DNA of 64,000 bases from the NCBI GenBank assembly GCA_041663425.1, contig JBAYMS010000001.1, forward strand, positions 8,884-72,883, written 5' to 3'. The notes below the pieces were generated by a model, which saw nothing but the letters and a program-made list of their open reading frames with translations, was not told the DNA's origin and made no database searches. Positions 20,822-61,870 of the stretch are shown piece after piece; the first letter of the stretch is position 1; each line of letters starts with the position of its first letter. Position numbers and translations under genes: made by a program. Origin of the DNA: Candidatus Omnitrophota bacterium. Lineage in GTDB: Bacteria > Omnitrophota > Gorgyraeia > 2-01-FULL-45-10.

Positions 20822-20837
20822 AAATCAGCGCGGGCAT

Positions 20838-21047
20838 ATGAAAAAAGTAGTAATTTTCCTATTAAATTTTTATCGTAAATATCTATCCCCATTGAAGTTG
20901 CAATGTTGTAGGTTCTATCCAACCTGCTCACAATATACTGTAGAATCCGTTGAGAAATACGGGGTTTTAAGAGGTTTGTTAAAAGGTGCAAAACGTATCC
21001 TTAGGTGCCATCCTTTTGCTAAGGGCGGATACGATCCAGTAGCATAG
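20838..21047 (+). CDS. yidD: Membrane protein insertion efficiency factor YidD.
   Basis: [36 protein letters not shown] is the conserved YidD motif. Confidence 0.85.
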
Positions 21048-21077
21048 TCCTAAAAGGCGTGCTTAAAAAGGAGATCG

Positions 21078-22664: not shown

Positions 22665-22761
22665 GCTTGGCGAATGCCTTGACAAACATGTTTTTATGAG
22701 GTATAGTTAAGAAAAATAGTTCCACGTGGAAATTGTTCCACGGGGAACAATTTCAGGGAAA

Positions 22762-23613: not shown

Positions 23614-24470
23614 TGGAAAAGAGAGCTTTGGGAAAAGGTCTTAGTGCCCTTATTCCCGGTAAAGAAGTAACGCAAGAGAATGGAGAGTCAGTTTTAAAGA
23701 TTGATATATCAAAAATTAAGACAAACAAATATCAGCCTCGTTTAGAATTTAATAAAGAAAAATTAGAAGAGCTTATGAGCTCTATAAAAGAAAAGGGAGT
23801 CGTCCAGCCCGTCCTAGTCCGAAAGATCGCGGATGGCTATGAATTAATAGCTGGAGAACGGCGTTTGCGGGCCGTTACCGGCCTGGGAATGACCACAATC
23901 CCTGTTATTGTTAAAGATGTTGCGGATCTGGACATGCTTGAGCTGTCATTGATCGAAAACATTCAGCGGGAAGAGCTTAACCCGATAGAAGAAGCGGTTG
24001 CGTTCCAGAAATTCATAACAGATTTCAATTTTACACAGGAAAAGATCGCCGCATCGCTTGGCAAAGACCGTTCCACGGTAGCCAATACGATCAGACTTCT
24101 TACGCTGCCTCAAAAAATACGTGAATTCATTTCCAGCGGCAGTATAACAGCCGGCCACGCCAAAGCGATTCTGTCTTTACCGACGGAAAACGAGCAGCTT
24201 AGAGTCTGCAATCTTGTTGTTAAAAAAGGCCTATCGGTCAGAGAAACAGAATCTCTGGCATCCCGCAGAGCCAGCGGGCAGGGGGAGAAGAATGTTAAAA
24301 TAGGTAAAGACCAGAGTCTGGTCGATCTGGAAAGCCAGCTTCAGCAGTTTTTTGGTACCCGCGTCAAAATAATGCAGGGTAAAAAGCGCGGCTGCATACA
24401 GATAGAGTACTATTCCAGCGATGATTTAAACCGCATATTGGACATCTTTTCGGCAAAATCTCAAGCTTAA
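23610..24470 (+). CDS. parB: Chromosome partitioning protein ParB/Spo0J.
   Basis: ParB box GERRLRA and an HTH (QEKIAASLGKDRSTVANTIRLL). The start overlaps the parA stop. Confidence 0.9.
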   Translation: MMEKRALGKGLSALIPGKEVTQENGESVLKIDISKIKTNKYQPRLEFNKEKLEELMSSIKEKGVVQPVLVRKIADGYELIAGERRLRAVTGLGMTTIPVIVKDVADLDMLELSLIENIQREELNPIEEAVAFQKFITDFNFTQEKIAASLGKDRSTVANTIRLLTLPQKIREFISSGSITAGHAKAILSLPTENEQLRVCNLVVKKGLSVRETESLASRRASGQGEKNVKIGKDQSLVDLESQLQQFFGTRVKIMQGKKRGCIQIEYYSSDDLNRILDIFSAKSQA

Positions 24471-38466: not shown

Positions 38467-38541
38467 GGGCAAGTAGCTCAATGGCGGAGCAATCGGTTTA
38501 CATCCGATAGGTTACAGGTTCGACCCCTGTCTTGCCCACCA
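38467..38541 (+). tRNA. tRNA-Val (anticodon UAC).
   Basis: GGGCAAGTAGCTCAATGGCGGAGCAATCGGTTTACATCCGAT...GGTTCGACCCCTGTCTTGCCCACCA. Confidence 0.85.
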
Positions 38542-38592
38542 CTTCTCTGAATAACCCAAGCCATGCAGTCCCGAGGAGATGTGGTTTGACTG

Positions 38593-38859
38593 ATGCGACG
38601 AGGGACACTTAACCCTATGAGCAAGTGGACTGTTTATATTCTTAAATGTAATGACGCTTCTTTATATACCGGCATTACGACCGATCTTGAAAAACGGGTA
38701 AAAAAGCACAATGAAGGCCGTGCTGCGAAGTACACGAGAGCAAAAAGGCCTGTTTCAGTGGTTTATACTGAAGGCGCTGTTAATTCATCCTCAGCTAAAA
38801 AGAGAGAAGCCGAGATAAAAAAATTATCTCGACAAGCTAAGGTAGAGCTGATAAAATAA
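38593..38859 (+). CDS. GIY-YIG nuclease family protein (UPF0213-like). The likely start is MSKWTVYIL at about 38617.
   Basis: WTVYILKCNDASLYTGITTDLEKRVKKHNEG..AKYTRAKRPV is the GIY-YIG core. The gene is sandwiched between two tRNA genes. Confidence 0.7.
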   Translation: MRRGTLNPMSKWTVYILKCNDASLYTGITTDLEKRVKKHNEGRAAKYTRAKRPVSVVYTEGAVNSSSAKKREAEIKKLSRQAKVELIK

Positions 38860-38873
38860 GCTTCCAGATTTCC

Positions 38874-38950
38874 GGGGACGTAGTTCAGTTGGTTAGAACG
38901 TCAGATTGTCGATCTGAAGGTCGCGGGTTCGACCCCCGTCGTCCCCGCCA
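38874..38950 (+). tRNA. tRNA-Asp (anticodon GUC).
   Basis: GGGGACGTAGTTCAGTTGGTTAGAACGTCAGATTGTCGATCTGA...GGTTCGACCCCCGTCGTCCCCGCCA. Confidence 0.85.
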
Positions 38951-39104
38951 TATAGAAACAGTAACTGGTTTAATACCAGATGATTAGCCGTAACAAGTTG
39001 TAAATTCAACTGGTTACGGCTATTTTATTTATCTTGCGTGTTTTGGAAATTAGCGCTATTCTTGGAAGTGATGGCACAAAAATGGCACAGTCATAGGGCT
39101 CCGA

Positions 39105-39599
39105 ATGGCGAATAATATTGATGTTTCAAAACTTCCGCTAAGCAAGATATTGATTTTGTTTGGCGACTTAATGGATGAGCTGAAGAAAAGAGGCGTTGTT
39201 AGAACGCGTAATAATCCGGTAGCTGACTATGCCGAATGGCTAACGGTAAGAGTCTTTAGTCTTGGCATCCAAACAAGCTCTAACAAAGGCTTTGATGCCA
39301 TTGATAAAAAAGGAATTCGATACCAAATAAAAGGCCGTAGGCTCGATGCTTCAAACCCATCCCGGCAATTGGGGGTTATTCGCGATCTTGATAAAAAGGG
39401 ATTCGATTTTCTTATCGCTATCATATTTAACAAAGATTTTACTATTCACGATGCCTATAAAATTCCGCACGAGCTCATAGGCGAATACGCTCGTTATAGT
39501 AAACATCAAAATGGATATATATTACACCTTAAAGGAAAAATTCTTCTGGCAAAAGGCGTTGAGAATATTACCGGAGCATTAAGCAAAGTTTCGGCATGA
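39105..39599 (+). CDS. Hypothetical small protein, possibly a PD-(D/E)xK-like nuclease or DNA-binding fold. First gene of a two-gene module.
   Basis: 164 aa. GFDAIDKKGIRYQIKGRR fits a D...(E/Q)xK pattern after an upstream acidic residue (ADYAEW). It sits in AT-rich DNA and ends 7 nt before the next ORF. Confidence 0.35.
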   Translation: MANNIDVSKLPLSKILILFGDLMDELKKRGVVRTRNNPVADYAEWLTVRVFSLGIQTSSNKGFDAIDKKGIRYQIKGRRLDASNPSRQLGVIRDLDKKGFDFLIAIIFNKDFTIHDAYKIPHELIGEYARYSKHQNGYILHLKGKILLAKGVENITGALSKVSA

Positions 39600-39606
39600 G
39601 GAGATT

Positions 39607-42477
39607 ATGAACTATCCACGAGGGTCGGAATGGAGAAAATGGGACTTACATTTACACACACCGTCTTCTTATGATTACGATGACAAGAGCGTCACAGATG
39701 AGCAATTGATTAAAACCTTAAAAGAAAACGAAATTACCGTTGTAGCTATAACGGATCATCATTTTATAGATGTTGAAAAGATAAAGAAACTACAAGAATT
39801 AGCAAAAGACGAAATTACAATATTCCCGGGGATTGAGCTTCGAGCAGAGCTGGGAGGTAGCGAATCCATCCATTTTATAGGAATATTCCCAGAGGATTCT
39901 GATGTAAATGATATTTGGACAAAATTACAGGGGCAGTTAGAATTAACGCCAGCGGATGTAAAGAAAAAAGGTAATGATAAGATTTATTGCCATTTGAATA
40001 AGGCCGCCGAGCTTATTCATCAGTTGGGAGGCATTATAACTATTCATGCTGGCTCGAAAAGTAACTCGGTTGAAAAAATCACTAATGCGCTTCCATATAA
40101 AGAAGCGCTTAAAGAAGACATTGTGAAATCTATCAATGTCTATGAAATCGGGAATTCAGCCGATGTGGAAGGATACAGAAGCAATGTTTTTCCGAACATA
40201 GGGATTAAAATTCCTTTGGTAATTTGTTCTGACAACCACGATATAAAAAAGTATGTGTTAAAAGAGAATTGTTGGATAAAAGCAGATCCAACATTTACCG
40301 GGTTAAAGCAGATTATATTAGAGCCGGAGGATAGGGTATATATTGGCAAAGCTCCAACGAGGAGGAAAAACCTCGCCAGCGTAATCGACAAGATTGAGAT
40401 TAGTAATTCTAACGGGTGGTTTGAGGAATCCCCTATTGTTTTAAACGAAGACTTGGTCACCATAATAGGAGAAAAAGGTGCCGGTAAGACCGCGCTTGCC
40501 GATTTTATAGCTCTGGCGGGCGGGGATTTTGGGCTTCAAAAAAGCGATGCTAGCTCTTTTGTATTCAAAGCTCTAACCCCTACCAAACAAATCGAGAAGA
40601 CCATTGAAAATTGTCAAGTAACTATCAAATGGAAAGAGGGCAATCCCGACCAGATAACTATAAACAAAGAGCTGGTTGATTATAAACCTACGAAGAAAGT
40701 AAAATATTTATCTCAAAGTTTTATTGAGGAAAAATGTCGCCCAGAACACGCTGATGAATTGAGAAAAGAAATCGAGAATATCGTTTTTCAATATATACCA
40801 ACATCCGATAGGCTTGGGCAAACAACATTTAACGATTTAAAACGTTTAATGACGCGGGGTATTGAAGTAGAAAAAAGTAACTGCAGACAGCTTTTATTCG
40901 ACCTCAATGGTGAAATTTCTATTCTAAGAGACGAGATAGATAATCTCGAAGTACAAAAGTCAACTAAGAAGAAAACTGAAGATGAAATAACTCAGTTAAA
41001 TGAACAGAAACCAAAACCTGCTGATGCCGAGGAAAAAGCCATCGAAGATAAGCTGGCTATTTTATATACCAAGAAAAGTGAGATTAACGAAAAAGTTGCA
41101 GAATGCAAGTTGCAATTAAGCACCATAGAATCTATAAAAACAAAGCTGCTAGCTCTAAGTCAATACGTTGAAAAAGAATTGATTAGCATTAAGACGGACC
41201 TTGATTCAATAGCTTTAGGCAGTATTTACAACAAGCTAACATTTTCAATAAATCCAGAATTTCATACGAAGCTTGATGAAGCTAAGAATAAGCTGACGAA
41301 ACAGATTAAAGATTTTGAAGGAGCGCCGGAAAAAGTATCGTCCCTCACCGAAGATGAGAAAAAACTAGAGCTGATAACGACTGATTTTGTCAATGGGCTC
41401 ACACTTTCTCGTTTAGATGTAATTATAGAATGGCTAGAAACAAAATCGAGCATTGCCTATGATGCAAGAAAAGTTATTAAGGATTTCGAAGAGAAAATAG
41501 AGAAAAATAAGAAAGCAGTAGCATCTTTAGAAAAAAGCATCGCCGAGGTAGAGAAAACAAAAAAACCTACTCTTGCGAAGAAAATCGAGGAAAGAAATAG
41601 TGCCTATAAAAGTTATTTCACTTTGCTCCAAAAAGAAAAAAGTGTATTTGAAAGCCTGAGCGCACCTATTAAAACAAAAATTGATTCAGAGAATGTTGGT
41701 GATAAGCAGATAGGTTACTCAGCAAGAATTGAATTTGATGTTAATGGATTTTATGAAAAAGCATGTGAAATAATAAATTTCAAAGCAGCTGGTCATTATC
41801 ATCAAGATGGCCAACTGTTATTTAAAGATATCAAAGCCATAGCAGAAAAGATTGAGCTCGCAGAAGATGCCGATGTTTGCGCTTGTCTTGTAGACCGGTT
41901 CATTCAAACATTCGAAAAAGATGATGGTAGCGATGTTGATATTAAAACTCAACTGAAAAAAGGTAAAAAACAAATTGATTTTGATGCATGGCTTTTTGGT
42001 ATTTCATTCTTCAGCGTGACATATAGCATAAAATACCAAGATACTTATATTGAATTGCTATCTCCTGGAAAAAAAGGGATAGTGTTGTTACTAATGTATC
42101 TCACGTTAGATGCTGAGAGTGGCATACCGTTGATTATAGACCAACCAGAAGAAAATCTAGACAACAAATCCGTATATGCGCATCTAATAGAATACTTCCG
42201 CCAAGCCAAGAAGCGGCGGCAAATTATCGTTGTAACACACAATCCGAATTTAGTATTAAATACAGATGCCGAACAAGTGCTTGTTGCTGATTTTCAAGTC
42301 GTACCACCTGCGGGGCAAGCAAGAATAAGATATATAAGCGGGTCTATAGAAAATTCGTTTATTAACGAGTCTCTCAAAGACCCTCTCAGAAGACAGGGTA
42401 TTCGCGAGCATGGTGCCGAGATATTGGAGGGCGGTAAAAAGGCCTTTATTCAGCGAAAAGATAAGTACGAATACTAA
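39607..42477 (+). CDS. Fusion protein: N-terminal PHP phosphoesterase domain plus a Rad50/SbcC/RecN-like coiled-coil ABC ATPase.
   Basis: PHP motifs WDLHLHT, ITDHH, GIE and SDNHD in roughly the first 230 aa. Walker A GEKGAGKT. About 350 aa of K/E-rich coiled coil. C-terminal signature LSPGKKG, Walker B LIIDQPEENLD and H-loop VVTHNP. Confidence 0.65.
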   Translation: MNYPRGSEWRKWDLHLHTPSSYDYDDKSVTDEQLIKTLKENEITVVAITDHHFIDVEKIKKLQELAKDEITIFPGIELRAELGGSESIHFIGIFPEDSDVNDIWTKLQGQLELTPADVKKKGNDKIYCHLNKAAELIHQLGGIITIHAGSKSNSVEKITNALPYKEALKEDIVKSINVYEIGNSADVEGYRSNVFPNIGIKIPLVICSDNHDIKKYVLKENCWIKADPTFTGLKQIILEPEDRVYIGKAPTRRKNLASVIDKIEISNSNGWFEESPIVLNEDLVTIIGEKGAGKTALADFIALAGGDFGLQKSDASSFVFKALTPTKQIEKTIENCQVTIKWKEGNPDQITINKELVDYKPTKKVKYLSQSFIEEKCRPEHADELRKEIENIVFQYIPTSDRLGQTTFNDLKRLMTRGIEVEKSNCRQLLFDLNGEISILRDEIDNLEVQKSTKKKTEDEITQLNEQKPKPADAEEKAIEDKLAILYTKKSEINEKVAECKLQLSTIESIKTKLLALSQYVEKELISIKTDLDSIALGSIYNKLTFSINPEFHTKLDEAKNKLTKQIKDFEGAPEKVSSLTEDEKKLELITTDFVNGLTLSRLDVIIEWLETKSSIAYDARKVIKDFEEKIEKNKKAVASLEKSIAEVEKTKKPTLAKKIEERNSAYKSYFTLLQKEKSVFESLSAPIKTKIDSENVGDKQIGYSARIEFDVNGFYEKACEIINFKAAGHYHQDGQLLFKDIKAIAEKIELAEDADVCACLVDRFIQTFEKDDGSDVDIKTQLKKGKKQIDFDAWLFGISFFSVTYSIKYQDTYIELLSPGKKGIVLLLMYLTLDAESGIPLIIDQPEENLDNKSVYAHLIEYFRQAKKRRQIIVVTHNPNLVLNTDAEQVLVADFQVVPPAGQARIRYISGSIENSFINESLKDPLRRQGIREHGAEILEGGKKAFIQRKDKYEY

Positions 42478-42655
42478 GTTTAATAATCAATTGCTGAGAA
42501 TAAATATAAACAAGAACTGATTAATCGCTGGTCTAAGCTTTATGGTAAACAGATAACCGAAGAAGAATATCGACAGATTTGTGATAATTTAAGCGGTTAC
42601 ATTAAACTTTTGTATGAGTGGGATATGAAAGATAAAACGCAAAAAGGAGAGCACA

Positions 42656-42880
42656 ATGCCAAGGATAGCAAGTAATGTTTGCCCAGCGTGTCATAATAAG
42701 TTTCCTGCACACAAAGGTAACACGAAAACTTTTAGACAACTTACGCCGGCGGAGAGAAGTAGGTCTATTAGAATGATGGCTATCAATTTAAAGAAGGCTA
42801 TAAATGCTGACTTGCCATCGACCCGTATCAGACGGCTTTTTTGGGTTATAGATTATATGGCGCGGCAGGGAAGCAGGTAA
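42656..42880 (+). CDS. Hypothetical small protein, low confidence; lies in a region of gene remnants beside the IS.
   Basis: 74-aa ORF with a single CPAC motif. An unanchored open frame upstream (42497..42679) has no start codon. Likely decayed island cargo. Confidence 0.2.
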   Translation: MPRIASNVCPACHNKFPAHKGNTKTFRQLTPAERSRSIRMMAINLKKAINADLPSTRIRRLFWVIDYMARQGSR

Positions 42881-43037
42881 CAAATGATACATGAAAAAAA
42901 CGTATTTAACGATATCTTCGCTGATTTGATTTGCCATTCCCAGTTTGATGGAGGGCATAATCCTTTAGATTATTTGCACTATATGGACAAAATGGAACAG
43001 GCTAGAAAAAATAATAATGAAGAAGTGACCTTACCCC

Positions 43038-43751
43038 TTACACTGCACAGCTCGTAAGGTGAATTTCTGGTGTTTTTTGTTGTTCTTTCCAGGCCTTGGT
43101 GAACTCTGCCGGAGTTAGACCGTCTAACGATCCGTGAGGCCTGAATGTATTATACTCCACTCTCCAGTCTTCGATAATCTTTTTTGCTTCTTCAATCGTA
43201 ACGAAGTAATGTTGATTGAGGCATTCGTGCCGTAGCCTACCATTGAACGACTCGATAAAAGCGTTCTGTATGGGCTTGCCGGGCTTTATAAAGTCAAGCC
43301 TAGCACCGTTATCATACGCCCATTTATCAAGGGCTCGTCCCGCGAACTCAGGACCGTTATCGGTCGTGATTACTTGCGGACATCCTCTTGTAAGAACTAG
43401 CCAATCAAGCACTCTCGTTACTCTGTTACCGTCTATAGACGTATCGACTTCGATAGAGAGACATTCTTTAGTAAAGATATCAAGCACGTTCAGCGTCTTT
43501 ATCTTCCTGCCGTTCCATAACCCGTCTGACATAAAGTCCATCGCCCAGCGTTCATTGGGCTTCGAGGCTTCCGGTAGCTCTAGTCTGATCATTGAGGCTC
43601 TCTTGTGACGTTTGCGAAGCTTTAGCGCGAGGCTATTCTCCTTATAGATGCGCTCGGTGCGCTTATGGTTTACTACAAGTCCCTCACGATGCAATATATC
43701 GTGAAGCATCGGAAGTCCCCAGCTCTTATGCGTAGCTATAAGCTCCTTCAT
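43038..43751 (-). CDS. IS3-family transposase OrfB (integrase core / DDE). It probably extends upstream to about 43888 as an OrfAB fusion through frameshifting.
   Basis: rve-domain motifs: WAMDFM...D, the VITTDNGPEF region, and ...E at FIESFNGRLRHECLN. Confidence 0.8.
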   Translation of the reverse strand: MKELIATHKSWGLPMLHDILHREGLVVNHKRTERIYKENSLALKLRKRHKRASMIRLELPEASKPNERWAMDFMSDGLWNGRKIKTLNVLDIFTKECLSIEVDTSIDGNRVTRVLDWLVLTRGCPQVITTDNGPEFAGRALDKWAYDNGARLDFIKPGKPIQNAFIESFNGRLRHECLNQHYFVTIEEAKKIIEDWRVEYNTFRPHGSLDGLTPAEFTKAWKEQQKTPEIHLTSCAV

Positions 43752-50609: not shown

Positions 50610-52148
50610 GTGGGTTTTCTTTTAGATAAAAACAGCACAATATCCGCATATCTGATGAATCAGGAACGAAAAAATATATTTTTCCTGCCTATTATTTCAA
50701 TAATCATTTTAGGGGCTATTTGTTATGCCGGCTCTCTGAATGGGAAATTTATACTGGATGATGAGCTTCTGGTAAAAGAGAACGCGCTCATAGCGAACAG
50801 GGCAGGTCCTGGTACATTTCTTTCTACCAATATCATGGCAGGGGCCGGCATGGTCTCCGCTTTTTACCGTCCATTGCAGATGATCACCTATGCGCTGGAT
50901 CATGCCATATGGGATCTTAATCCGTTCGGATATCATATTACTAATATATTTATTCATATTCTTACCGCACTATGCATATATTGGCTGATCAATATTTTAT
51001 ATAATGATAATAAATTATCCTTTTTAACCGCCGCATTATTCGTGGTTCATCCGATGCATACCGAAGCCGTAAGCTATATCTCTGGCAGGGCAGATCCTCT
51101 TTCCGCATTATCTATGCTTCTATGCGCGATAATATATATAAAACAAGTGAAGCTGGGCAGGGCAGGTGTTTCGGGCTGCGCACTGCTCATATTAACTTAT
51201 GTTTTAGCGCTTCTTTCGAAAGAGATGAGTGTGGTGCTGCCGCTACTGCTCCTTCTTTATCATTTTGTTTTCAAAAAGAAGGTGCGTTGGCCGGCATTTG
51301 TGTCTTTACTGAGCGTCCTGGCTGTCTATCTGTTAGTCAGGTTCACTTATCTTAGAGATATATCTTTTCCGACGAATATTGGGATCGATACGATGCTTAA
51401 CAGGATTCCCGGATTCTTCGCCGCAATACTGAATTATATAAAGCTTTTATTTGTGCCGATCCCGCTTCATATGGAATACGGGGCCAGACTGTTCCGATTT
51501 GCGGACCCAATAGTAGTTTCCGGCATGGTAGTAGTTTTTAATATACTCGTTTTTGCCTATACGAAAAGAAACAACAAGGTAGTCCTATTTTCAATAGGCT
51601 GGTTTTTTCTGGCCTTGCTTCCGTCGGCTAATTTATACAAAGTAAACGCATACATGGCGGAACATTTTCTTTATCTGCCTTCCATAGGATTTTTCCTGTT
51701 GGCAGCCTATGTTTTAACAAATATTTATAATAATAAAAGGTATAAAATTATCGGACTTGCGCTGATGGTGACTGCTATCTTATTTTATTCGGTCCTTACG
51801 ATAAAACAAAACGAATACTGGAGAGACCCTATAACATTTTACACAAGGACCATAGAATTTGCCCCACCCAGTGCGAACATTTATTATGGCCGTGGAATAA
51901 TTTATGATAAAAAAGGTGACTATGATAAAGCCATATCAGATTACACCATGGCTATTAAAATAAAACCTGACTATACGGATGCATACAATAATAGGGGTAT
52001 CGTCCACAGTAAAATGGGCAATTATGAACAAGCCATATCAGATTATGCTATGGCTATAAAGATAGATCCGGACTATATTCCCGCCCAGAAAAATCTTATA
52101 AAAGCACGTAAAGATAGCGGCAGGATTGCAGAGGGCCATAGCAGATGA
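50610..52148 (+). CDS. Polytopic membrane protein with C-terminal TPR repeats (DUF2723 / PMT_2-like glycosyltransferase-type). Paralog of the gene at 60284..61870.
   Basis: About 11 TM segments with the conserved blocks LDDELL and HPMHTEAVSYISGR. A C-terminal TPR run follows (YYGRGIIYDKKGDYDKAISDYTMAIKIKPDY...). Confidence 0.55.
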   Translation: MGFLLDKNSTISAYLMNQERKNIFFLPIISIIILGAICYAGSLNGKFILDDELLVKENALIANRAGPGTFLSTNIMAGAGMVSAFYRPLQMITYALDHAIWDLNPFGYHITNIFIHILTALCIYWLINILYNDNKLSFLTAALFVVHPMHTEAVSYISGRADPLSALSMLLCAIIYIKQVKLGRAGVSGCALLILTYVLALLSKEMSVVLPLLLLLYHFVFKKKVRWPAFVSLLSVLAVYLLVRFTYLRDISFPTNIGIDTMLNRIPGFFAAILNYIKLLFVPIPLHMEYGARLFRFADPIVVSGMVVVFNILVFAYTKRNNKVVLFSIGWFFLALLPSANLYKVNAYMAEHFLYLPSIGFFLLAAYVLTNIYNNKRYKIIGLALMVTAILFYSVLTIKQNEYWRDPITFYTRTIEFAPPSANIYYGRGIIYDKKGDYDKAISDYTMAIKIKPDYTDAYNNRGIVHSKMGNYEQAISDYAMAIKIDPDYIPAQKNLIKARKDSGRIAEGHSR

Positions 52149-55045: not shown

Positions 55046-55134
55046 GGCACTTAGCTAACTGTGTGGCTGAATAAACTTGGCTGATGTCAGAGACATCAGC
55101 ACTTAGTCAGCAGCGTGGCTGAATAAACTTGGAG
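55046..55134 (+). repeat. Two tandem diverged copies of the ~35-nt motif seen at 37088, separated by a perfect hairpin.
   Basis: Copy 1 is gcacttagctaactgtgtggctgaataaacttggc; copy 2 is gcacttagtcagcagcgtggctgaataaacttggag. Between them lies ctgatgtc-aga-gacatcag. GGAGG follows copy 2 just before the start codon. Confidence 0.4.
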
Positions 55135-55716
55135 GGATTGGATATGTTAAAACAAATACTAAAATGTAAGGTAACGACGGCTCTTTGTTTGGCGCTGGTT
55201 TTATGCTCTCAGGAAGCATTTGCCAGAGGGGGAGGCGGGCCCGGACCTGAGCCGCGGCATCGCGGAGATTATTATTATCGCGGAGATCAGTTGTATAGGC
55301 ATGGATGGCTAGGGTTTGATATTGCTGTTGCGGCGCTGACTATAGGCGCAATAGTAGATTCTCTTCCGCCAAGGTATAACACGGTTGTGGTCGGAGGGGT
55401 GCCGTACTACTATTATGGGAATGCCTACTATAGGCCATGTCCGGGCGGTTACGTTGTTGTTCCGCCGCCTATTGCAACTCAACCCATTATAGTAGCGTCT
55501 GAAGCGGTCCAGCCGGTTACCGTGGTTACTCCGGTGGTCGCTGCTCAAACTCAGGCCCAGACCGCTGAAACGGTGACAATCAATATCCCCAGTTCAAAAG
55601 GCGGGTATAAAGCGATATCGCTCAAAAAATCAGGCAACGGGTTTATCGGGCCTCAGGGCGAGTATTATTATGAGCATCCCACAGTTGAGCAGTTAAAAAC
55701 ATTGTATGGAAGTTAA
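55129..55716 (+). CDS. Secreted Tyr/Gly/Pro-rich hypothetical protein. The likely start is MLKQ, the ATG at about 55144.
   Basis: Signal peptide (ALCLALVLCSQEAFA) and repeats such as GDYYYRGDQLYRHGW and GVPYYYYGNAYYRPCPGGY. Confidence 0.45.
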   Translation: MEGLDMLKQILKCKVTTALCLALVLCSQEAFARGGGGPGPEPRHRGDYYYRGDQLYRHGWLGFDIAVAALTIGAIVDSLPPRYNTVVVGGVPYYYYGNAYYRPCPGGYVVVPPPIATQPIIVASEAVQPVTVVTPVVAAQTQAQTAETVTINIPSSKGGYKAISLKKSGNGFIGPQGEYYYEHPTVEQLKTLYGS

Positions 55717-55742
55717 AAACAGAAATAAAAAAGGAGGGCACC

Positions 55743-56288
55743 ATGAAGTATATTATGGGTATTCTGATAGTGTTGTGTTGTGCGGTAGCGATGGTATCGT
55801 CGAGCGTATTTGCCAACGAGTGTCCTATGGGTAAAGACGGGGTTGGGCCCCAGTATGGGAAAATGGCCCGTGGTATGGACAAGGACAACATCTTTTTTTA
55901 TAAAGCGCATTTCGTTATGGAAAATGCGGCCGAGCTGGGTTTAAGTAACGAACAGATAGAAAAAATAAAAACGCTTAAATACGGCATCGAAAAAAATAGC
56001 ATAAAGAAAGATGCAGATATAATGATCCTTGCCCTTGATATTAAAGAGGCGCTTGGCAAAGACGAGACAGATATTAATGCTGTAAATGCTCTCATAGACC
56101 AGAAATATGCGCTGAAAGCTCAGAAGGCGAAAGAAGAGATGGATGCATGCGTAAGCCTTAAGAAGATCCTGACTCCTGAGCAGCTCAAAAAAATGAAAGA
56201 GATGCATCGGAAAGGCCCTAAGGGATGGGGCAAAGGCCCTGATGCGGCAAAAGTGCCTATGGCTGAAATGGAAGAGCGCGGCGAATAA
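55743..56288 (+). CDS. Periplasmic Spy/CpxP-family (LTxxQ motif) chaperone-like protein.
   Basis: Signal peptide; helical K/E-rich body carrying LTPEQLKKMKEM. Confidence 0.55.
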   Translation: MKYIMGILIVLCCAVAMVSSSVFANECPMGKDGVGPQYGKMARGMDKDNIFFYKAHFVMENAAELGLSNEQIEKIKTLKYGIEKNSIKKDADIMILALDIKEALGKDETDINAVNALIDQKYALKAQKAKEEMDACVSLKKILTPEQLKKMKEMHRKGPKGWGKGPDAAKVPMAEMEERGE

Positions 56289-56307
56289 AAAAATAATACT
56301 GTAAGCG

Positions 56308-56338
56308 GGGCCGGGCAAAACGCCCGGCCCTTTTTGTT
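56308..56338 (+). terminator. Rho-independent terminator.
   Basis: A perfect 9-bp GC stem GGGCCGGGC-aaaac-GCCCGGCCC followed by TTTTTGTTT. Confidence 0.7.
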
Positions 56339-56396
56339 TATGACAGCTAAAAATACTTGCATAGTCGCAAAGATGTGATATAATTATTATGAACAT

Positions 56397-56723
56397 ATGT
56401 TCATAATAGAGGATATGATGAGACCGAAAAAAACGAGATGGATAAAGTGCCTGCCCGGCGAAAGATGTTTTAAACCGATGTGCAAACCTTTAAACAAAGT
56501 TAAATGTGTTTGTCTGACCCTGGACGAGTTTGAGGCTGTTAGGTTGGCCGACCTGGAAGGTATGGAACAGGCTGAGGCTGCCAAAATGCTTAAAATATCA
56601 AGACCGACATTCTCGAGGATAGCGGCTTCCGCCCGCAAAAAAATCGCTGACGGACTGGTAAATATCAAAGCTATCAGGATAGAAGGCGGCTGCTGCAAAG
56701 TCGTAAGGAGAAAAATAAGATGA
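56397..56723 (+). CDS. DUF134-family predicted DNA-binding protein (sigma-70 region-4-like HTH).
   Basis: LTLDEFEAVRLADLEGMEQAEAAKMLKISRPTFSRI is the DUF134 HTH core. Sits upstream of the permease. Confidence 0.55.
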   Translation: MFIIEDMMRPKKTRWIKCLPGERCFKPMCKPLNKVKCVCLTLDEFEAVRLADLEGMEQAEAAKMLKISRPTFSRIAASARKKIADGLVNIKAIRIEGGCCKVVRRKIR

Positions 56724-58024
56724 AAGATTTGAAGAAATTCTGGTGGCTCGTAGGTATATTCATAGTGATGTACTTTCTGCCGCTGGGTAACCCCAAGGTA
56801 TCGAACGCCATCTTTGAGGCGTTTAAGCTTCTTCAATGGTATGTCATTAACCATACACTAGCCTGTGTTGTTCCAGCCATGTTCATAGCAGGGGCTATAT
56901 CGACGTTTTTGTCGCAGGCCTCAGTAATGAGATATCTCGGACCGGATGCGAATCGACCACTAGCTTATACGGTAGCGTCTGTCTCAGGGATTATCCTCGC
57001 GGTATGCTCATGCAGTGTGCTTCCGATGTTTGCGGGTATTTATACTATGGGAGCAGGTCTTGGGCCCGCAAGCGCTTTTCTTTATTCAGGCCCGGCGATA
57101 AATGTTATGGCTGTATTTCTTTCTGCGCGCGTTCTAGGGTTTGATATAGGACTGGCCAGGGCTATTGGTGCGATCGGTTTTGCCTTTATCATAGGTCTTT
57201 CTATGGCATTTATATTTAGGAAGTCGGAGCACGTGCGTAATAAAGCCGCTATGGCTCTGCCGCCAGCCCCGAAACCTACCAGACAACTCTGGAAGACAGG
57301 TCTTTACTTCTTCTGTATGATAATGTTCCTTGTCTTTAGCGATTGGTATAACACTAACGACGTCACTCTTAATTTGAAAACCGGCACTACAATGAAAGCA
57401 AGCATACAATACTCAACACAGGATTTCATCGAAGTAAAAGAATATAAGGCCGACGGGATGATAGCTATAGATGCTGTGCGCCTTGACCGTAAAGATATTG
57501 CTAAAATAACCCCGGAAGATAATTTCGTAATGAGGGTACACGCTATTAAGTGGTACCTTGCCGGTCTTATGTTGTTAGCTATCCTGATCATGCTAAAAAA
57601 ATGGTTTACTCGTGCTGAGATAAAAGAGTGGATGACTGCAACCTGGGATTTTGGGATGATGATCGTTCCTCTTCTTTTTGGAGGCGTATTTGTAACAGGA
57701 TTTATCGGCGGAATTATGCCGGAGAAGGCAGTGGCTACTTTTGTGGGAGGCAACGGATTCTTCTCAAACCTTGTTGCGTCTGTCATAGGCTCACTCTGGT
57801 ATTTTGCGACGCTAACCGAGATACCGATCACCGAAATGCTGATGCGTCTGGGGATGGGCAAAGGACCTGCGCTTGCGCTTCTTCTGGCTGGCCCGGCATT
57901 GTCGCTCCCGAGCATTTTAGTCATTAACAAAATATTAAAGTGGCGGAAAACACTTATATTCTGTTTGCTTGTAGTTGGATTTTCTACTATCGTGGGATAT
58001 ATCTTTGGAATGATAGCACATTAA
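56720..58024 (+). CDS. COG0701/DUF318 permease, ArsP-like (putative organoarsenical/thiol-compound permease).
   Basis: Polytopic, with a membrane CSCS motif (ILAVCSCSVLPMF) resembling the ArsP TPFCSCS motif. Followed by TIGR00412-like thioredoxin genes. Confidence 0.6.
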   Translation: MKDLKKFWWLVGIFIVMYFLPLGNPKVSNAIFEAFKLLQWYVINHTLACVVPAMFIAGAISTFLSQASVMRYLGPDANRPLAYTVASVSGIILAVCSCSVLPMFAGIYTMGAGLGPASAFLYSGPAINVMAVFLSARVLGFDIGLARAIGAIGFAFIIGLSMAFIFRKSEHVRNKAAMALPPAPKPTRQLWKTGLYFFCMIMFLVFSDWYNTNDVTLNLKTGTTMKASIQYSTQDFIEVKEYKADGMIAIDAVRLDRKDIAKITPEDNFVMRVHAIKWYLAGLMLLAILIMLKKWFTRAEIKEWMTATWDFGMMIVPLLFGGVFVTGFIGGIMPEKAVATFVGGNGFFSNLVASVIGSLWYFATLTEIPITEMLMRLGMGKGPALALLLAGPALSLPSILVINKILKWRKTLIFCLLVVGFSTIVGYIFGMIAH

Positions 58025-58067
58025 ATATCAGTATCTGTATGTAATAATCTTTGCAAGTATCTACTAA

Positions 58068-58313
58068 ATGGAGGAGAGGATGAAAATTGAAATATTAGGA
58101 GTTGGTTGCCCGAAATGCAAACAGCTTACCGCCAATGCTGAAGCAGCGGTGCAAGAGTTAAATATTCAGGCCGAAATCGGTAAAGTCACCGATATTGTCA
58201 AAATTACAGAATATGGGATCATGATGACTCCGGCATTAGCGATCGATGGTACTGTTGTATCTGTGGGTAAGGTATTAAGTAAAGATGAGATCAAAAAGAT
58301 TATATCAAAATAA
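58068..58313 (+). CDS. Thioredoxin-fold 'redox-active disulfide protein 2'-like small protein (CPKC). The likely start is MKIEILG at 58080.
   Basis: KIEILGVGCPKCKQL...IDGTVVSVG. This family typically accompanies COG0701 permeases. Confidence 0.55.
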   Translation: MEERMKIEILGVGCPKCKQLTANAEAAVQELNIQAEIGKVTDIVKITEYGIMMTPALAIDGTVVSVGKVLSKDEIKKIISK

Positions 58314-58329
58314 ATACAGGGGAGGGTAA

Positions 58330-58767
58330 GTGAAAAAAATATTTCCAGTTCTTCTGGCGGTTGCCGTGCTAATTAGTAGCGGCCTAATTATTTCTTTGCC
58401 GGCCCAAGCAGAAGATAATGCCAAAAGCGCGCAAGTTGTTGCTTATTATTTTCACGGAGATATGCGTTGTCCCACTTGCCATAAGCTGGAGCAATATTCT
58501 AAAGAAGCGGTGGAGACTAACTTTAAGGATGCGGTTGCATCCGGAAAATTAGACTTTAAAGTTATCAATGTAGAAGATAAAGGCAACGAACACTATGCTA
58601 GCGATTACCAGCTTTACACCAAATCGCTTATTTTGTCTTTAGTTAAAGACGGTAAGGAAATAAAATGGAAGAATATGGATAAGATATGGGAGTATGTACA
58701 TAATAAAGAGAAATTTATTGATTATGTAAAGAGCGGGGTTGCCGATTTATTAAAGGAAACCAAATGA
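58330..58767 (+). CDS. Secreted thioredoxin-like protein with a CPTC motif.
   Basis: Signal peptide, then VVAYYFHGDMRCPTCHKLE. Confidence 0.45.
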   Translation: MKKIFPVLLAVAVLISSGLIISLPAQAEDNAKSAQVVAYYFHGDMRCPTCHKLEQYSKEAVETNFKDAVASGKLDFKVINVEDKGNEHYASDYQLYTKSLILSLVKDGKEIKWKNMDKIWEYVHNKEKFIDYVKSGVADLLKETK

Positions 58768-59444
58768 CAGAGATGCTTATAGCTTTTGCGTCAGCATTAT
58801 GGCTAGGTATATTAACTTCAATAAGCCCGTGCCCTTTGGCTAGCAATGTAGCCGCTATTTCTTTTTTATCTAAAAAGATAACACATCCAGCGCTTGTGTT
58901 TATTTCAGGCCTTGCCTACATGTTTGGTAGAATGGTATCTTATGCGATCTTGGGATGGATTATTATTAGTTCCCTTATAAGTGTCCCTCAAGTCGCCCAG
59001 TTCTTACAGAAATACATGGGGAAGGCTTTGGGGCTCATTCTGATTCTTGTCGGCCTCGTCCTGCTTGAGGTGCTAACGCTTCGTTTGCCCGGGTTGTCGT
59101 TGTCGCAAAAACATCACAAAAGAATAGCAGAGTCCGGCGCTCCGGGGGCCTTTTTGCTTGGCTTTATCTTTGCCCTTTCTTTTTGTCCTATTTCCGCCGC
59201 ATTATTTTTCGGAAGCCTTATACCTCTTGCGGTAGATAGTAAAATAGGCCTGGCCCTGCCATTTGTATATGGAATAGGAACAGGCCTTCCTGTATTTATT
59301 TTTGCTCTGGGTATTGCGCTGGGGGTTGCATCCTTAAGTCATTGGTTTAAGAAGCTGATAGCGATCGAAATATATGCCAGGAAAATCACAGGGGTGGTTT
59401 TTATTGCTGTGGGGTTGTATTATATTTTAAGATACATAGTATAA
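58764..59444 (+). CDS. CcdA/DsbD-family transmembrane thiol-disulfide electron transporter.
   Basis: Membrane Cys in TM1 (SISPCPL) and TM4 (SFCPIS); six TM segments. Confidence 0.6.
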   Translation: MTEMLIAFASALWLGILTSISPCPLASNVAAISFLSKKITHPALVFISGLAYMFGRMVSYAILGWIIISSLISVPQVAQFLQKYMGKALGLILILVGLVLLEVLTLRLPGLSLSQKHHKRIAESGAPGAFLLGFIFALSFCPISAALFFGSLIPLAVDSKIGLALPFVYGIGTGLPVFIFALGIALGVASLSHWFKKLIAIEIYARKITGVVFIAVGLYYILRYIV

Positions 59445-59451
59445 AGATAAT

Positions 59452-60282
59452 GTGAGGACATACATGAAAAATATAAAAAGCAAGGTTAGAGAAGGATACG
59501 CGAAGATCGCCAAAACAAACGGTTCATGCTGCGGCGGAAGCCCATGCTGTTCCGGGGCAAATCCGGCCGAGACTATAAGCAAGAATGTAGGATATAAAGA
59601 CGAGGATATGAAAAATGTGCCTGAAGGTGCAAACCTGGGGCTTGGCTGCGGTAACCCAATCGCTCTGGCATCTTTAAAGGCCGGTGAAGCCGTACTTGAC
59701 TTAGGGTCCGGTGCAGGCTTTGACGCGTTTCTGGCAGCTAAAAAAGTCGGAAAAGATGGCCGGGTGATAGGAGTAGACATGACGCCCGAGATGGTCGAGA
59801 AAGCGCGCGGCAATGCAGATAAGGGCGGATATAAAAATGTAGAGTTCCGCTTAGGAGAGATCGAAAGCCTGCCCGTCGCAGACGCCTGCGTCGATGTCAT
59901 AATATCGAACTGTGTTATTAATCTCTCGCCCGATAAGCAAAAAGTATTTCAGGAGGCTATGAGGGTTTTAAAGAATGGCGGAAGGCTTATGGTTTCTGAT
60001 CTGGTGCTTCGCAAAGAGCTGCCCGGGGTAATAAAAAAGTCGGTCGAAGCTTATGTAGGCTGCATTTCAGGAGCCGTTCTGAAAAAAGAGTATCTGGAAT
60101 ATATAAAAAATGCCGGTTTTGAAAATATTGACGTGGTTGGTGAGACATCATTTCCTATGGACGATATGGCTCACGATATAACCGCAAAAGCGATCAAAGA
60201 TAACATCGACTTAACTCCGGACGATATTAAAGCACTGGAAGGGTCAGTGGTCAGCATAAAAGTATCCGCTATAAAAAAATAA
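59452..60282 (+). CDS. arsM: Arsenite S-adenosylmethionine methyltransferase.
   Basis: N-terminal Cys pairs (CCGGSPCCSG), SAM motif LDLGSGAGFD, and the conserved SNCVINLS cysteine. Confidence 0.75.
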   Translation: MRTYMKNIKSKVREGYAKIAKTNGSCCGGSPCCSGANPAETISKNVGYKDEDMKNVPEGANLGLGCGNPIALASLKAGEAVLDLGSGAGFDAFLAAKKVGKDGRVIGVDMTPEMVEKARGNADKGGYKNVEFRLGEIESLPVADACVDVIISNCVINLSPDKQKVFQEAMRVLKNGGRLMVSDLVLRKELPGVIKKSVEAYVGCISGAVLKKEYLEYIKNAGFENIDVVGETSFPMDDMAHDITAKAIKDNIDLTPDDIKALEGSVVSIKVSAIKK

Positions 60283-60283
60283 T

Positions 60284-61870
60284 ATGCATGAAAATAACAA
60301 TAAAATTTTAAACCCTGTTTTTTTAACGCTTATTTTATGTGTAGCTGGGTTTATTATTTATTCCAATACTCTTGCCGGCTCTTTTCAGCTCGACGATCAT
60401 ATAGTCATTATTGATAATACCGCAGTAAAAAATATATCAAACCCAGGCGGTATCTGGAAGTATTGGCCCACGCGCTTTATTACGAATTTTTCATTTGCTG
60501 TAAATTATCAGATGGGGAAGCTTAACGTGTTATATTACCATCTGTTCAATCTTCTTATTCATATAGGTTCTGCGATATTGGTGTGGCGGCTTATGCTGCT
60601 TACTCTTATATCTCCCGGCATGAAGGGGCAGGGAATCACAAATTATAGAGAGGAAATAGCATTCTTCGCAGGATTAGTATTTTTAACTCATCCTATTCAG
60701 ACTCAGGCGGTAAGCTACATAGTCCAGAGAGCCACTTCAATGTCAGGGTTTTTTTGTATCCTGTCTATGTATCTTTACGCCAGGGCGGCATTGTTAGATG
60801 GAAAGTTTTACTTTGGAGCATTGCTGGCAGGAATAATAGCTATGTTTACAAAAGAGAGTGCCGTGATCCTGCCATTTACCATAATGCTCTACGATTTCTT
60901 TTTTATTACTGAATCCCAGTCCTCCAGATGGAAGCGGATCGCGCCTTTTCTTTTTACGCTATTTATAATTCCTGCGACCATGTTTTTTACCAGATCAATC
61001 GATTTTGCGAATATGTGCAGGGTCCAGGAGGGCTCGCCCGGCATTGCACCCGCAAACTATTTAATGACGCAATTCGGAGTTATTGTAGAATATATGAAGC
61101 TTCTGATCGTGCCCGTGAGCCAAAACGTAGACCACGATTATCGCGTTGCTTTATCTTTTACACAGCCGCAGGTTTTTATGCCCATGACTGCCCTTATATT
61201 TGTTCTTATTATAGGAGTTAAAACATTTTCGAAATACAAGCTGATCTCATTCGGGATCTTCTGGTTTTTTATTACTCTTTTACCGGAATCGAGCGTTATT
61301 CCGATAGCCGACGTTATGTTTGAACACAGGCTGTATCTGCCGATGTTAGGATATAGCGTTTTTCTGGCAGGGTTAATATATTACGCCTTAGAACGCACTG
61401 GAATAAAGACTGTGAAGACAGTCATGATGTGTTTAGTAATCATTTATTGTGCGATGACTTATAGCAGGAACTTTGTCTGGCAGAGCGAGGTCAGTCTGTG
61501 GGATGACGCAGTGAGAAAATCCCCCGCTAAAAGCCGGGTTTATAATAACCGCGGCTATGCTTATCTCGAAAAGGATAGGTTTGACCTTGCCATAAAAGAT
61601 TTCGATAAAGCGATTGCCCTTGAGCCAGATATTGAAGCAGGATATTATTACAACCGCGGCAATGTCTATAATTACACAGATAAGCCCGACGCTGCGATCG
61701 CCGATTATAGCAAGGCTATTGAGATGAATCCTTATTATGGCTTTGCATATATCGGAAGAGCATTTGCTTATTTTAAAAAGAAGGACTTCGATAAAAGTAA
61801 GGCAGATGTAGCCCGGGCAAAATCTCTTGGCTATGAAACAGATGCGATAAGCGCCGCTTTAGGACAATAA
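60284..61870 (+). CDS. Polytopic membrane protein with C-terminal TPR repeats; paralog of the gene at 50610..52148.
   Basis: Shares the blocks LDDHIVI, HPIQTQAVSYIVQRA and FEHRLYLP with its paralog, then a TPR run (YNNRGYAYLEKDRFDLAIKDFDKAIALEPD...). Confidence 0.55.
   Translation: MHENNNKILNPVFLTLILCVAGFIIYSNTLAGSFQLDDHIVIIDNTAVKNISNPGGIWKYWPTRFITNFSFAVNYQMGKLNVLYYHLFNLLIHIGSAILVWRLMLLTLISPGMKGQGITNYREEIAFFAGLVFLTHPIQTQAVSYIVQRATSMSGFFCILSMYLYARAALLDGKFYFGALLAGIIAMFTKESAVILPFTIMLYDFFFITESQSSRWKRIAPFLFTLFIIPATMFFTRSIDFANMCRVQEGSPGIAPANYLMTQFGVIVEYMKLLIVPVSQNVDHDYRVALSFTQPQVFMPMTALIFVLIIGVKTFSKYKLISFGIFWFFITLLPESSVIPIADVMFEHRLYLPMLGYSVFLAGLIYYALERTGIKTVKTVMMCLVIIYCAMTYSRNFVWQSEVSLWDDAVRKSPAKSRVYNNRGYAYLEKDRFDLAIKDFDKAIALEPDIEAGYYYNRGNVYNYTDKPDAAIADYSKAIEMNPYYGFAYIGRAFAYFKKKDFDKSKADVARAKSLGYETDAISAALGQ

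Follow-up and report, generated by a model that had tools for sequence, protein, structure and literature searches.

An arsenic-detoxification operon of Omnitrophota headed by a DUF134 protein, and a conserved palindrome proposed as its operator

A 64-kb stretch of DNA (hereafter the window; the recovered contig L001 is identical to the contig from which it comes) carries a six-gene arsenic-detoxification operon, headed by a small helix-turn-helix (HTH) protein of the DUF134/UPF0251 family. This gene is followed by those of a PF03773 permease, of ArsE, ArsF and ArsG, and of ArsM, a predicted arsenite methyltransferase; NCBI annotates proteins identical to them in a metagenome-assembled genome (MAG) of Candidatus Omnitrophota. 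The parts belong mostly to known families, the ArsE/ArsF/ArsG trio, ArsM and the permease having been described before. What is new is the operator and the specificity determinant of the DUF134 protein, the former being a conserved 20-bp palindrome which we propose on sequence grounds. On balance, we favour the reading in which the operon is autorepressed by DUF134 and handles trivalent (methyl)arsenicals by thiol chemistry.

Gene identities were assigned using curated profile libraries (NCBIfam/TIGR and Pfam), with scores read against the curated cut-offs. The six open reading frames (ORFs) of the cluster outlined in a first-pass annotation of the window are where that annotation had placed them, and every product scores above its cut-off, well outside what chance would give. 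All lie on the + strand and are co-directional, in the order DUF134, permease, ArsE, ArsF, ArsG, ArsM. DUF134 (56418..56723; 101 residues) matches PF02001 with 80 bits (cut-off 27), and the ArsP_1 permease, which is of the long type (56720..58024; 434 residues), matches PF03773 with 245 bits (cut-off 32). ArsE (58080..58313, within an ORF at 58068-58313) carries a CPKC motif and no signal peptide, and scores 106 bits on TIGR00412, 'MTH895/ArsE family thioredoxin-like' (cut-off 62); ArsF (58330..58767), with a CPTC motif and a signal-like N-terminus, scores 121 bits on NF040494, 'ArsF family' (cut-off 60). ArsG (58764..59444) reaches 275 bits on NF040495, 'ArsG family transporter' (equivalog cut-off 200), together with 59 bits on PF13386 (DsbD_2) and a match to DsbD_TM. 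ArsM (59464..60282, within an ORF at 59452-60282) is of the short type, with 272 residues, and scores 355 bits on the arsenite methyltransferase model NF008823 (cut-off 263).

The starts given for ArsE (58080) and ArsM (59464) follow the L001 gene calls and are probably correct. For DUF134, the ATG at 56418 is the most likely start (MRPKK, as in all 57 homologous loci), the alternative being 56415, which corresponds to a 102-residue NCBI protein (P0121); the start at 56397 chosen in the first-pass annotation falls inside the putative operator palindrome and is off by 18-21 nt. The coding regions of DUF134 and the permease (56720-56723), and those of ArsF and ArsG (58764-58767), overlap by 4 nt, which suggests translational coupling within each pair. 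A consensus promoter scan found no internal promoters above background (18 found, 16.2 expected). Amongst window ORFs of at least 150 residues none encodes ArsC, ACR3, ArsB or ArsR; a BASS transporter encoded upstream was considered as a candidate ACR3 and rejected, as NCBIfam does not call it ACR3.

The promoter palindrome and the DUF134 protein

Reading 5′ to 3′, the DUF134 gene is preceded by a terminator, a −35 box, a −10 box, a perfect 24-bp palindrome and a ribosome-binding site (RBS), which leads to the start codon. The intrinsic terminator (56307..56340, + strand; a 10-bp stem with nine G-C pairs, and a T-tract) belongs to an upstream LTXXQ/Spy-like gene and marks the 5′ boundary of the operon. 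The promoter (56357..56384, + strand) is of the sigma-70 type, with a −35 box TTGCAT (56357-56362), a 16-nt spacer and a −10 box TATAAT (56379-56384). It was missed by the consensus promoter scanner; the TTGCAT box with its 16-nt spacer (10/12) was read by eye. The palindrome, TATTATGAACATATGTTCATAATA (56385..56408), is a putative operator with the core TTATGAACATATGTTCATAA (56387-56406). It begins directly after the −10 box and would therefore cover the expected transcription start, whilst its 3′ end abuts or overlaps the RBS.

Across 58 homologous loci the promoter consensus is TTGACA-N17-TGnTAnAnT, with the palindrome after it at the same relative position. These loci keep the promoter–palindrome–RBS–ATG layout, and in 53 of the 58 the distance from the end of the palindrome to the start codon is 14-18 nt. 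With up to three mismatches allowed, the window contains the 20-mer once only (0 expected). A strict palindrome pattern occurs in 35 loci, in one copy each, and just upstream of DUF134 wherever positions were compared. Scanning metagenome contigs for the exact 20-mer gave at least 120 sites on at least 119 contigs. Among the matches listed, 83 of 120 exact sites have a close DUF134 homologue no more than 80 nt downstream, which is followed by the permease and operon genes; of the remaining sites in the same list, several stand before divergent, cysteine-poor DUF134 genes, and others precede Nitro_FeMo-Co (NifX-like), DUF5320 or radical S-adenosylmethionine (SAM) genes or a CusB/HlyD adaptor.

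Other settings of the palindrome were also seen. In L097 (~10440-10489) and L177 (~4711-4760), tandem palindromes, ATTATGGGCATATGCCCATTAT and then TTATGAACATATGTTCATAA, lie by a DUF5320 gene, an arrangement that hints at two DUF134-type specificities at one promoter. In L090 (2250-2420), the operator is found with a TTGACA/TATATT promoter 85 nt upstream of a gene for a resistance-nodulation-division (RND) adaptor of the CusB/HlyD type, with no adjacent DUF134; this gene may be an additional regulon member. On about nine contigs (L084, L085, L093, L131, L136, L151, L167, L186 and L187) the 20-mer is contained in a 34-bp perfect palindrome, GGTCAGTTTATGAACATATGTTCATAAACTGACC, in unrelated contexts and with no DUF134 gene beside it; a repeat element of another kind seems to be involved.

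Variants of the operator change symmetrically and track the recognition helix of the DUF134 protein. The helix of the window's own protein, I-S-R-P-T-F-S-R, goes with the half-site ATGAAC (also ATGAGC and ATGGAC), the helices I-S-R-S-T-F-S-R and V-H-R-S-T-[IV]-S-R each go with ATGCAC, and I-H-Q-S-T-I-S-R goes with ATGCATA. All 40 proteins with proline at position 63 have ATG[A/G]xC on at least one arm of the operator, and a fully ATGCAC-type operator is found with none (0/40); all 18 with serine at this position have ATGC on at least one arm, and none (0/18) has a fully ATGAAC-type operator. Hybrid operators occur at four loci (L027, L035, L032 and L071). Four ISRSTFSR proteins are 91-95% identical to ISRPTFSR proteins outside the helix, so a single Pro-to-Ser change coincides with the exchange of A for C, which affects only one arm in L032 and L071 but both in L015 and L017. 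Direct readout by a dimeric protein is expected to leave such co-variation, for which common descent alone accounts poorly. DUF134 would thereby gain a concrete function that is cheap to test, the means being the 20-bp operator and the change of specificity with one residue (Pro63 or Ser63, matched to A or C at position 4 of the half-site).

The PF02001 match covers profile positions 5-94 of 98. In the AlphaFold2 (AF2) model, the core (residues 30-85) has a predicted local distance difference test (pLDDT) score of 75-90, and superimposes to ~1 Å on sigma-70 region 4 and on DeoR DNA-binding domains bound to operator DNA. A PDB sequence search found no structure for DUF134, and the literature searched yielded no characterisation of DUF134, UPF0251, COG1342 or DUF5320. 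The protein resembles the ArsR/SmtB regulators in being a small HTH protein encoded by the first gene of its operon, in having a palindromic promoter site, and in its cysteine cluster, which includes a vicinal pair, as do some of the As(III) sites of ArsR proteins. It differs in its fold, which is like that of sigma-70 region 4 and the DeoR N-terminal HTH and is not a winged helix, and in its operator sequence. The window DUF134 gave no match to PF01022 (winged-helix HTH_5), leaving an ArsR-like way of working possible and membership of the ArsR family not. Regulators of ars genes from outside the ArsR family have precedent, for example in a MarR subfamily, as a preprint indicates (bioRxiv 10.1101/2021.08.12.456183).

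Five cysteines of DUF134 (C11, C17, C22, C92 and C93) show 97-100% conservation across the 58 members of the clade. An exhaustive search of the family gave 3,547 representatives at 50% identity, and positions were compared among the best 150 of these. There, position 17 is Tyr or Phe, position 22 is Gly (126/151), position 92 is Asn, Pro or Ala, and position 93 is Val, Tyr or Phe; outside the query, the full cysteine set occurs in one of these best 150 representatives only. Since the wider family has other residues at no fewer than four of the five positions, the cysteines are an innovation of the arsenic-linked branch, and binding of As(III) or methylarsenite (MAs(III)) is the most economical reading of them. 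We consider it likely that DUF134 binds the palindrome and autoregulates, whilst we give about even odds to induction by As(III) or MAs(III) with these cysteines as the sensor. The initial guess of a regulator outside the ArsR family is backed by the conserved operator, by the protein–DNA co-variation and by the finding of ArsR at the same operon position elsewhere (described below). DUF134 would represent a structurally new candidate class of arsenic-responsive regulator, of possible use in biosensors and in annotating ars operons that apparently have no regulator.

DUF134 genes were found, by protein similarity alone, on 197 plasmid records. Pairs of DUF134 and a following NifB/NifX-family gene are common on plasmids from Klebsiella, Citrobacter, E. 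coli, Proteus, Salinivibrio and Clostridia, often together with a PaaI thioesterase or Mrp-type ATPases, and in all four plasmids sampled (L203-L206, from Proteus, Citrobacter, Salinivibrio and Peptoclostridium) DUF134 is followed by a NifB/NifX-family gene. In three of these four, CATATG-centred boxes lie no more than ~70 nt from the start (TGGCATATGCT; TTGCATATGCCA; TGACATATGCCA / TGGCATATGTCA), and the remaining one has degenerate CATATG-centred boxes; these four plasmids suggest that a CATATG core motif may be family-wide in DUF134. The generic DUF134/UPF0251 proteins share with the Omnitrophota clade the Pfam family, the HTH core, the place as first gene of a small operon and the upstream CATATG-centred boxes. 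They differ in lacking C17, C22, C92 and C93, and in their cargo, which consists of NifX-like, Mrp ATPase or DUF5320 genes; the wiring to arsenic genes is seen in the Omnitrophota clade only. A function assigned to DUF134 would reach anaerobic bacteria, archaea and enterobacterial plasmids, including those of clinical Klebsiella, Citrobacter and E. coli.

Conservation and components of the arsenic operon

A one-genome-per-species collection, scanned with an ArsG alignment, gave at least 514 candidate stretches encoding ArsG. The ORFs of the best 80 loci were matched to the window proteins for gene order, and the counts given here come from the 45 loci with enough flanking sequence. The best 80 ArsG loci are almost all from Omnitrophota and 71-81% identical, and the one-strand order DUF134–permease–[ArsM]–ArsE–ArsF–ArsG is repeated in ~80 Omnitrophota species. 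The full six-gene set was found in 24 of the 45 loci and the same order without ArsM in 11, with DUF134 as the first gene in 40. ArsM is present in 27, usually between the permease and ArsE; the ArsM-last order of the window is shared by L045 only. As ArsM is optional, the conserved core is likely to be export and thiol handling and not methylarsenite production, and the methylarsenite production and export pathway put forward in the first-pass annotation has to be recast, with ArsM as an add-on. The capacity for arsenic methylation and export is indicated as widespread in Omnitrophota, an abundant groundwater and sediment phylum, and this bears on the speciation of arsenic in aquifers. Operon copies with 72-80% identity were also found in L045 (JAZDIE010000003.1) and in loci labelled Planctomycetia, Syntrophaceae, Auribacterota and Deltaproteobacteria; mis-binning or mislabelling of MAG contigs is a more probable cause of this than gene transfer.

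Homologous modules occur on plasmids of other phyla. The gene order is ArsR-like regulator, ArsF, ArsG, thioredoxin, permease, ArsC, ACR3 in Prevotella nigrescens, and ArsR, thioredoxin, ArsF, ArsG, permease in Fulvitalea axinellae; a Leptolinea plasmid carries ArsR, 'redox-active disulfide protein 2' (thioredoxin-like) and a long permease. In BLASTP comparisons with the window proteins, the plasmid proteins are 40-51% (ArsE), 35-37% (ArsF), 35-42% (ArsG) and ~30% (permease) identical, and they retain the CXXC/CSC motifs. The Prevotella, Fulvitalea and Leptolinea regulators all match PF01022 (ArsR family). A plasmid search with the permease as query returned a single record. Because the homologous modules are headed by ArsR elsewhere, comparison of the sequences indicates that the permease/ArsE/ArsF/ArsG module is a cross-phylum component of ars operons, with an arsenic link that holds without ArsM, and that DUF134 sits in the regulator place that ArsR holds in the homologous Bacteroidota and Chloroflexota operons.

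ArsM was checked against the counter-case named in the first-pass annotation, that of a UbiE/COQ5-like methyltransferase without the characteristic cysteines. It scores ~64 bits on the UbiE model NF001244 (cut-off 216) against 355 bits on NF008823, the solved structures closest to it are those of arsenite methyltransferases (5evj, 4fr0 and 4kw7), and its C66, C154 and C204 align with C72, C174 and C224 of CmArsM. Its N-terminal CC-x4-CC motif spans the position of CmArsM C44, with C32 aligning with a Chlamydomonas cysteine, and C26, C27, C32, C33, C66, C154 and C204 are kept in 41-42 of 42 homologues. The counter-case is not borne out, and the protein is a predicted As(III) SAM methyltransferase. 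It has in common with CmArsM (4FR0/4FS8) and Chlamydomonas ArsM (5EVJ) the SAM-binding fold, the aligned cysteines and the N-terminal cysteine pairs; unlike the algal enzymes it has no C-terminal domain, and with its 272 residues is of the short bacterial type, as in Rhodopseudomonas palustris. Its position in the operon is variable rather than fixed, being last here and in L045 and in the gap between permease and ArsE elsewhere.

The permease covers PF03773 profile positions 5-293 of 294. C49 and C96-S-C98 (a vicinal C-x-C in a transmembrane helix) are conserved, the CSC being present in 48 of 50 homologues, and the original description of the protein as ArsP-like stands in respect of the Pfam family and this motif. 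Relative to the 294-position profile there is an insertion of ~100 residues between the two halves (residues ~175-300), which has no Pfam match. Permeases of three size classes (434, ~390 and ~320 residues) all belong to PF03773; most Omnitrophota copies have 390 or ~320 residues, and the long form is also found in L031, L054 and the Leptolinea plasmid (444 residues). The short class carries TPFCSCS, for example in L008 and L015. Campylobacter jejuni ArsP exports MAs(III) and trivalent roxarsone and not arsenite, and two arsP clades, possibly with different functions, have been described (Chen et al. 2015, summarised in PMC6205960, for ArsP; PMC6205960 for the clades). The window permease shares with C. 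jejuni ArsP the PF03773 family, the C-x-C in a membrane helix and the ars-operon context; it differs in its length of 434 residues, in the ~100-residue insertion and in having AVCSCS in place of the TPFCSCS of the canonical short form.

Two thioredoxin-fold CXXC proteins, one cytoplasmic and one exported, and a CcdA-like membrane protein are present as first described; the trio is not new, being the already-named ArsE/ArsF/ArsG set, each member of which exceeds its NCBIfam cut-off. The CPKC motif of ArsE is kept in 73 of 73 homologues and the CPTC motif of ArsF in 79 of 80. ArsF begins with the signal-like N-terminus MKKIFPVLLAVAVLISSGLIISLPAQA; such an N-terminus is found on ArsF in all three phyla and on ArsE never. 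The mature domain of ArsF is modelled by AF2 with pLDDT 70-96 and the order β-α-β-α-β-β-α, with CPTC at the N-terminus of helix 1. Its top Foldseek matches in the PDB are overwhelmingly thioredoxins and related disulfide oxidoreductases, with no flavin nitroreductases amongst them. ArsG is a six-helix DsbD_2/CcdA-like membrane protein in which S-P-C23-P-L and F-C141-P-I are invariant (ArsG alignment A1). Its sole PDB sequence relative is CcdA (5VKV), a marginal match aligned over the full length, with the first cysteine in register and the second shifted by two residues.

The predicted topology of ArsE, ArsG and ArsF fits that required by a thiol relay from cytoplasm through membrane to periplasm. 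Like the relays from CcdA/DsbD to ResA, TlpA or CcmG, it would link a thioredoxin-like donor in the cytoplasm, through a membrane protein of six helices that bears a pair of cysteines, to an exported acceptor with a thioredoxin fold and CXXC motif; it differs in its arsenic rather than cytochrome-maturation context, as well as in the motif and loop features considered below. The relay of reducing equivalents envisaged in the first-pass annotation is in keeping with topology and fold, whilst the certainty attached to it needs revising: that the chain ArsE to ArsG to ArsF passes reducing equivalents rather than arsenicals is, in our view, plausible at somewhat below even chances.

In the work of Chen, Zhang and Rosen in 2019 on Shewanella putrefaciens 200, ArsEF is reportedly responsible for reduction of nitroaromatic arsenicals and ArsG for efflux. 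The study (Environ Sci Technol 53:6182) is cited in PMC9144182, and reviews mention ArsEFG as conferring organoarsenical resistance. The Omnitrophota trio has in common with that of Shewanella the three protein families and the location in an arsenic operon. In contrast with the latter, the trio is always joined to a PF03773 permease, both here and in Bacteroidota, and in Omnitrophota it stands under DUF134 and not ArsR, often with ArsM. The host phylum also differs, consisting of uncultured anaerobes with no plausible history of exposure to nitroaromatic arsenicals, and the Omnitrophota fold and topology point to a cross-membrane thiol relay, not to a soluble nitroreductase.

Proposed mechanism and alternative explanations

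The analysis shows gene identities, conservation of operon and operator, co-variation, folds, topology signals and the arsenic context in other phyla. From these we infer the following scheme, which covers repression and its inducer, what the relay carries and in which direction, and what the permease exports. The whole operon would be transcribed from the single sigma-70 promoter. The cysteine-rich DUF134 protein would bind as a dimer to the 20-24-bp palindrome over the transcription start, repressing its own operon. C11, C17 and C22, with the vicinal pair C92-C93, would form the sensor site for a thiophilic inducer, either As(III) or methylarsenite, occupancy of which would release the repressor. 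After induction, ArsM would methylate As(III), and the C-S-C permease would export trivalent (methyl)arsenicals. ArsE (CPKC, cytoplasm), ArsG (CcdA-like cysteine pair, membrane) and ArsF (CPTC, periplasm) would make up a thiol relay across the inner membrane, which may support arsenical chemistry on the periplasmic side.

Several observations weigh against this scheme. ArsM is absent from 18 of the 45 operons, so methylation is not a core function; ArsE is absent in some operons (L008, L037 and L073), and in Leptolinea an ArsE–permease pair occurs without ArsF or ArsG. The permease falls below the cut-offs of its sole specific NCBIfam matches, SaoE (107 against 325 bits) and SO_0444 Cu/Zn efflux (106 against 300 bits). 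The cysteine-bearing N- and C-terminal tails of DUF134 have pLDDT values <50 in the AF2 model, and for the cysteines a Zn site, an Fe-S cluster or a redox switch is equally conceivable. The second cysteine motif of ArsG is C-P where that of CcdA is P-C, and ArsF is without the conserved cis-Pro typical of thiol-disulfide oxidoreductases (alignment A3). By the names of the NCBIfam models, nitro-group reduction falls to ArsEF and efflux to ArsG, with no part for electron transfer. Finally, the palindrome, if fully transcribed, could fold as an RNA hairpin at −9.5 kcal/mol (z = −4).

The last point belongs to an alternative in which the palindrome is not the operator of DUF134 and serves as an RNA hairpin in the 5′ untranslated region (UTR), as a LexA-type SOS box, or as the site of a regulator encoded elsewhere, DUF134 then having another role. 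Symmetric substitutions would preserve an RNA stem as well, the core GAAC-N4-GTTC resembles the Gram-positive LexA (Cheo) box, and the roughly nine metagenome contigs with the 34-bp palindrome present the 20-mer in unrelated contexts. However, a transcription start ~7 nt past the −10 box cuts into the left arm of the palindrome, so the hairpin cannot form, and mismatched arms are tolerated in the hybrid operators of L027, L032, L035 and L071. Half-site identity also follows one residue of the recognition helix among proteins that are otherwise 91-95% identical, and the box tracks DUF134-family genes across lineages at differing spacings. As to LexA, no recA, lexA or uvr gene follows any operator site whose downstream gene was examined, and GAAC-N4-GTTC was found once only in the 64-kb window. 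A tblastn search with an E. coli LexA query (approximate) found no LexA homologue in 1.9 Mb of fetched DNA that could give the SOS box of the phylum, and the LexA version was therefore rejected on gene context. We regard this alternative as very unlikely in all its forms, and retain the palindrome as the probable DUF134 operator.

The role of the trio is the other point at which explanations diverge. Taken literally, the published ArsEFG function would make ArsE and ArsF together a nitroreductase of trivalent roxarsone or nitarsone, and ArsG the exporter of the resulting aminoaryl arsenicals, giving an aromatic-arsenical detoxification pathway with the PF03773 permease and ArsM as extras. ArsE, ArsF and ArsG do exceed the cut-offs of the NCBIfam models so named, identical proteins carry these annotations at NCBI, and DsbD-like proteins could in principle be transporters. 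Against this, a nitroaromatic function cannot explain an operon kept at 71-94% identity across ~80 Omnitrophota species of groundwater, lakes and sediments: roxarsone and nitarsone are synthetic feed additives of the 20th century, and nitroaromatic arsenicals are therefore not the selective reason for the operon. With a signal-like N-terminus on ArsF and not on ArsE, the two would occupy separate compartments, which is hard to reconcile with one soluble enzyme, and nothing in ArsF, a small CXXC protein with the thioredoxin fold, resembles a flavin nitroreductase. We consider the literal version unlikely. A Mer-like ligand exchange, in which As(III) or MAs(III) is handed from the CXXC of ArsE to the cysteine pair of ArsG and on to the CXXC of periplasmic ArsF, in parallel with the C-S-C permease or feeding it, fares somewhat better and is possible, if doubtful. 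In MerP, MerT and NmerA there is an earlier case of dithiols passing a soft metal through a membrane; every component here has invariant dithiols (CPKC, SPCP and FCP, CPTC, CSC), the want of the cis-Pro loop of true disulfide oxidoreductases in ArsF counts in its favour, and it reconciles the annotation of ArsG as an efflux permease with a CcdA fold. By analogy, on the other hand, CcdA homologues are known as electron transporters and the ArsE family consists of redox-active thioredoxin-like proteins, and the operon already encodes a dedicated permease. It is extremely unlikely that the trio is a general system for envelope disulfide reduction or cytochrome c maturation (CcdA with a ResA/TlpA-like partner) that merely lies beside arsenic genes. 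The Pfam assignment of ArsG to DsbD_2/DsbD_TM, the JGI name 'cytochrome c biogenesis protein CcdA' for its homologues and the thioredoxin fold of ArsF would suit such a system. The module, however, lies inside ars operons in three phyla, running from ArsR to ArsC/ACR3 in Prevotella and interleaved with ArsM in Omnitrophota, and ArsEFG share promoter and operator with the permease; ArsG exceeds the equivalog cut-off of an ArsG-specific model, and the missing cis-Pro loop of ArsF counts against this version too. The thiol relay set out above is the reading we prefer for the trio. The fold and topology of the module are at odds with the propagated names ('nitroreductase subunit', 'aromatic aminobenzylarsenical efflux permease'), and its natural role needs re-examining.

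A broader synthesis can be framed, in which the DUF134/UPF0251 family would consist of dimeric repressors of CATATG-centred palindromes, the Omnitrophota branch would be a four-to-five-cysteine sensor of As(III) or methylarsenite that has displaced ArsR, and ArsE, ArsG and ArsF, rather than a nitroreductase or an electron relay alone, would form a Mer-like dithiol hand-over chain on a CcdA scaffold that takes the trivalent metalloid through the membrane. As a joint proposal this is speculative, and we doubt that it holds in full.

Flanking genes and other features of the window

Two similar membrane proteins with C-terminal tetratricopeptide repeats (TPR), of 512 and 528 residues, are encoded on either side of the region (50610-52148 and 60284-61870). 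The second gene begins 1 nt past the ArsM stop codon with no terminator between them, and may be co-transcribed here; it was rejected as a member of the operon, as it is not kept beside the cluster in other loci. Directly upstream of the operon (55129-56288) are genes for a DUF6515 protein and for the LTXXQ/Spy-like periplasmic protein, cut off from it by the strong terminator described above. DUF6515 homologues are also found near the cluster in L051 and L079.

At 38467-43751, genes for tRNA-Val and tRNA-Asp are followed by a stretch of low GC content (0.36), which encodes a 956-residue SMC_N/AAA_21 ATPase (39607-42477) and an rve-family integrase/transposase (43038-43751, − strand); this may be an integrated island or a defence locus. 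The replication-origin region lies at 12018-24470, where dnaA (18723-20096), dnaN, gyrB and gyrA are encoded on the − strand, opposite to yidC, parA and parB (+ strand). The GC skew changes sign at ~20 kb, which places oriC probably in the gap at 20.1-21.0 kb.

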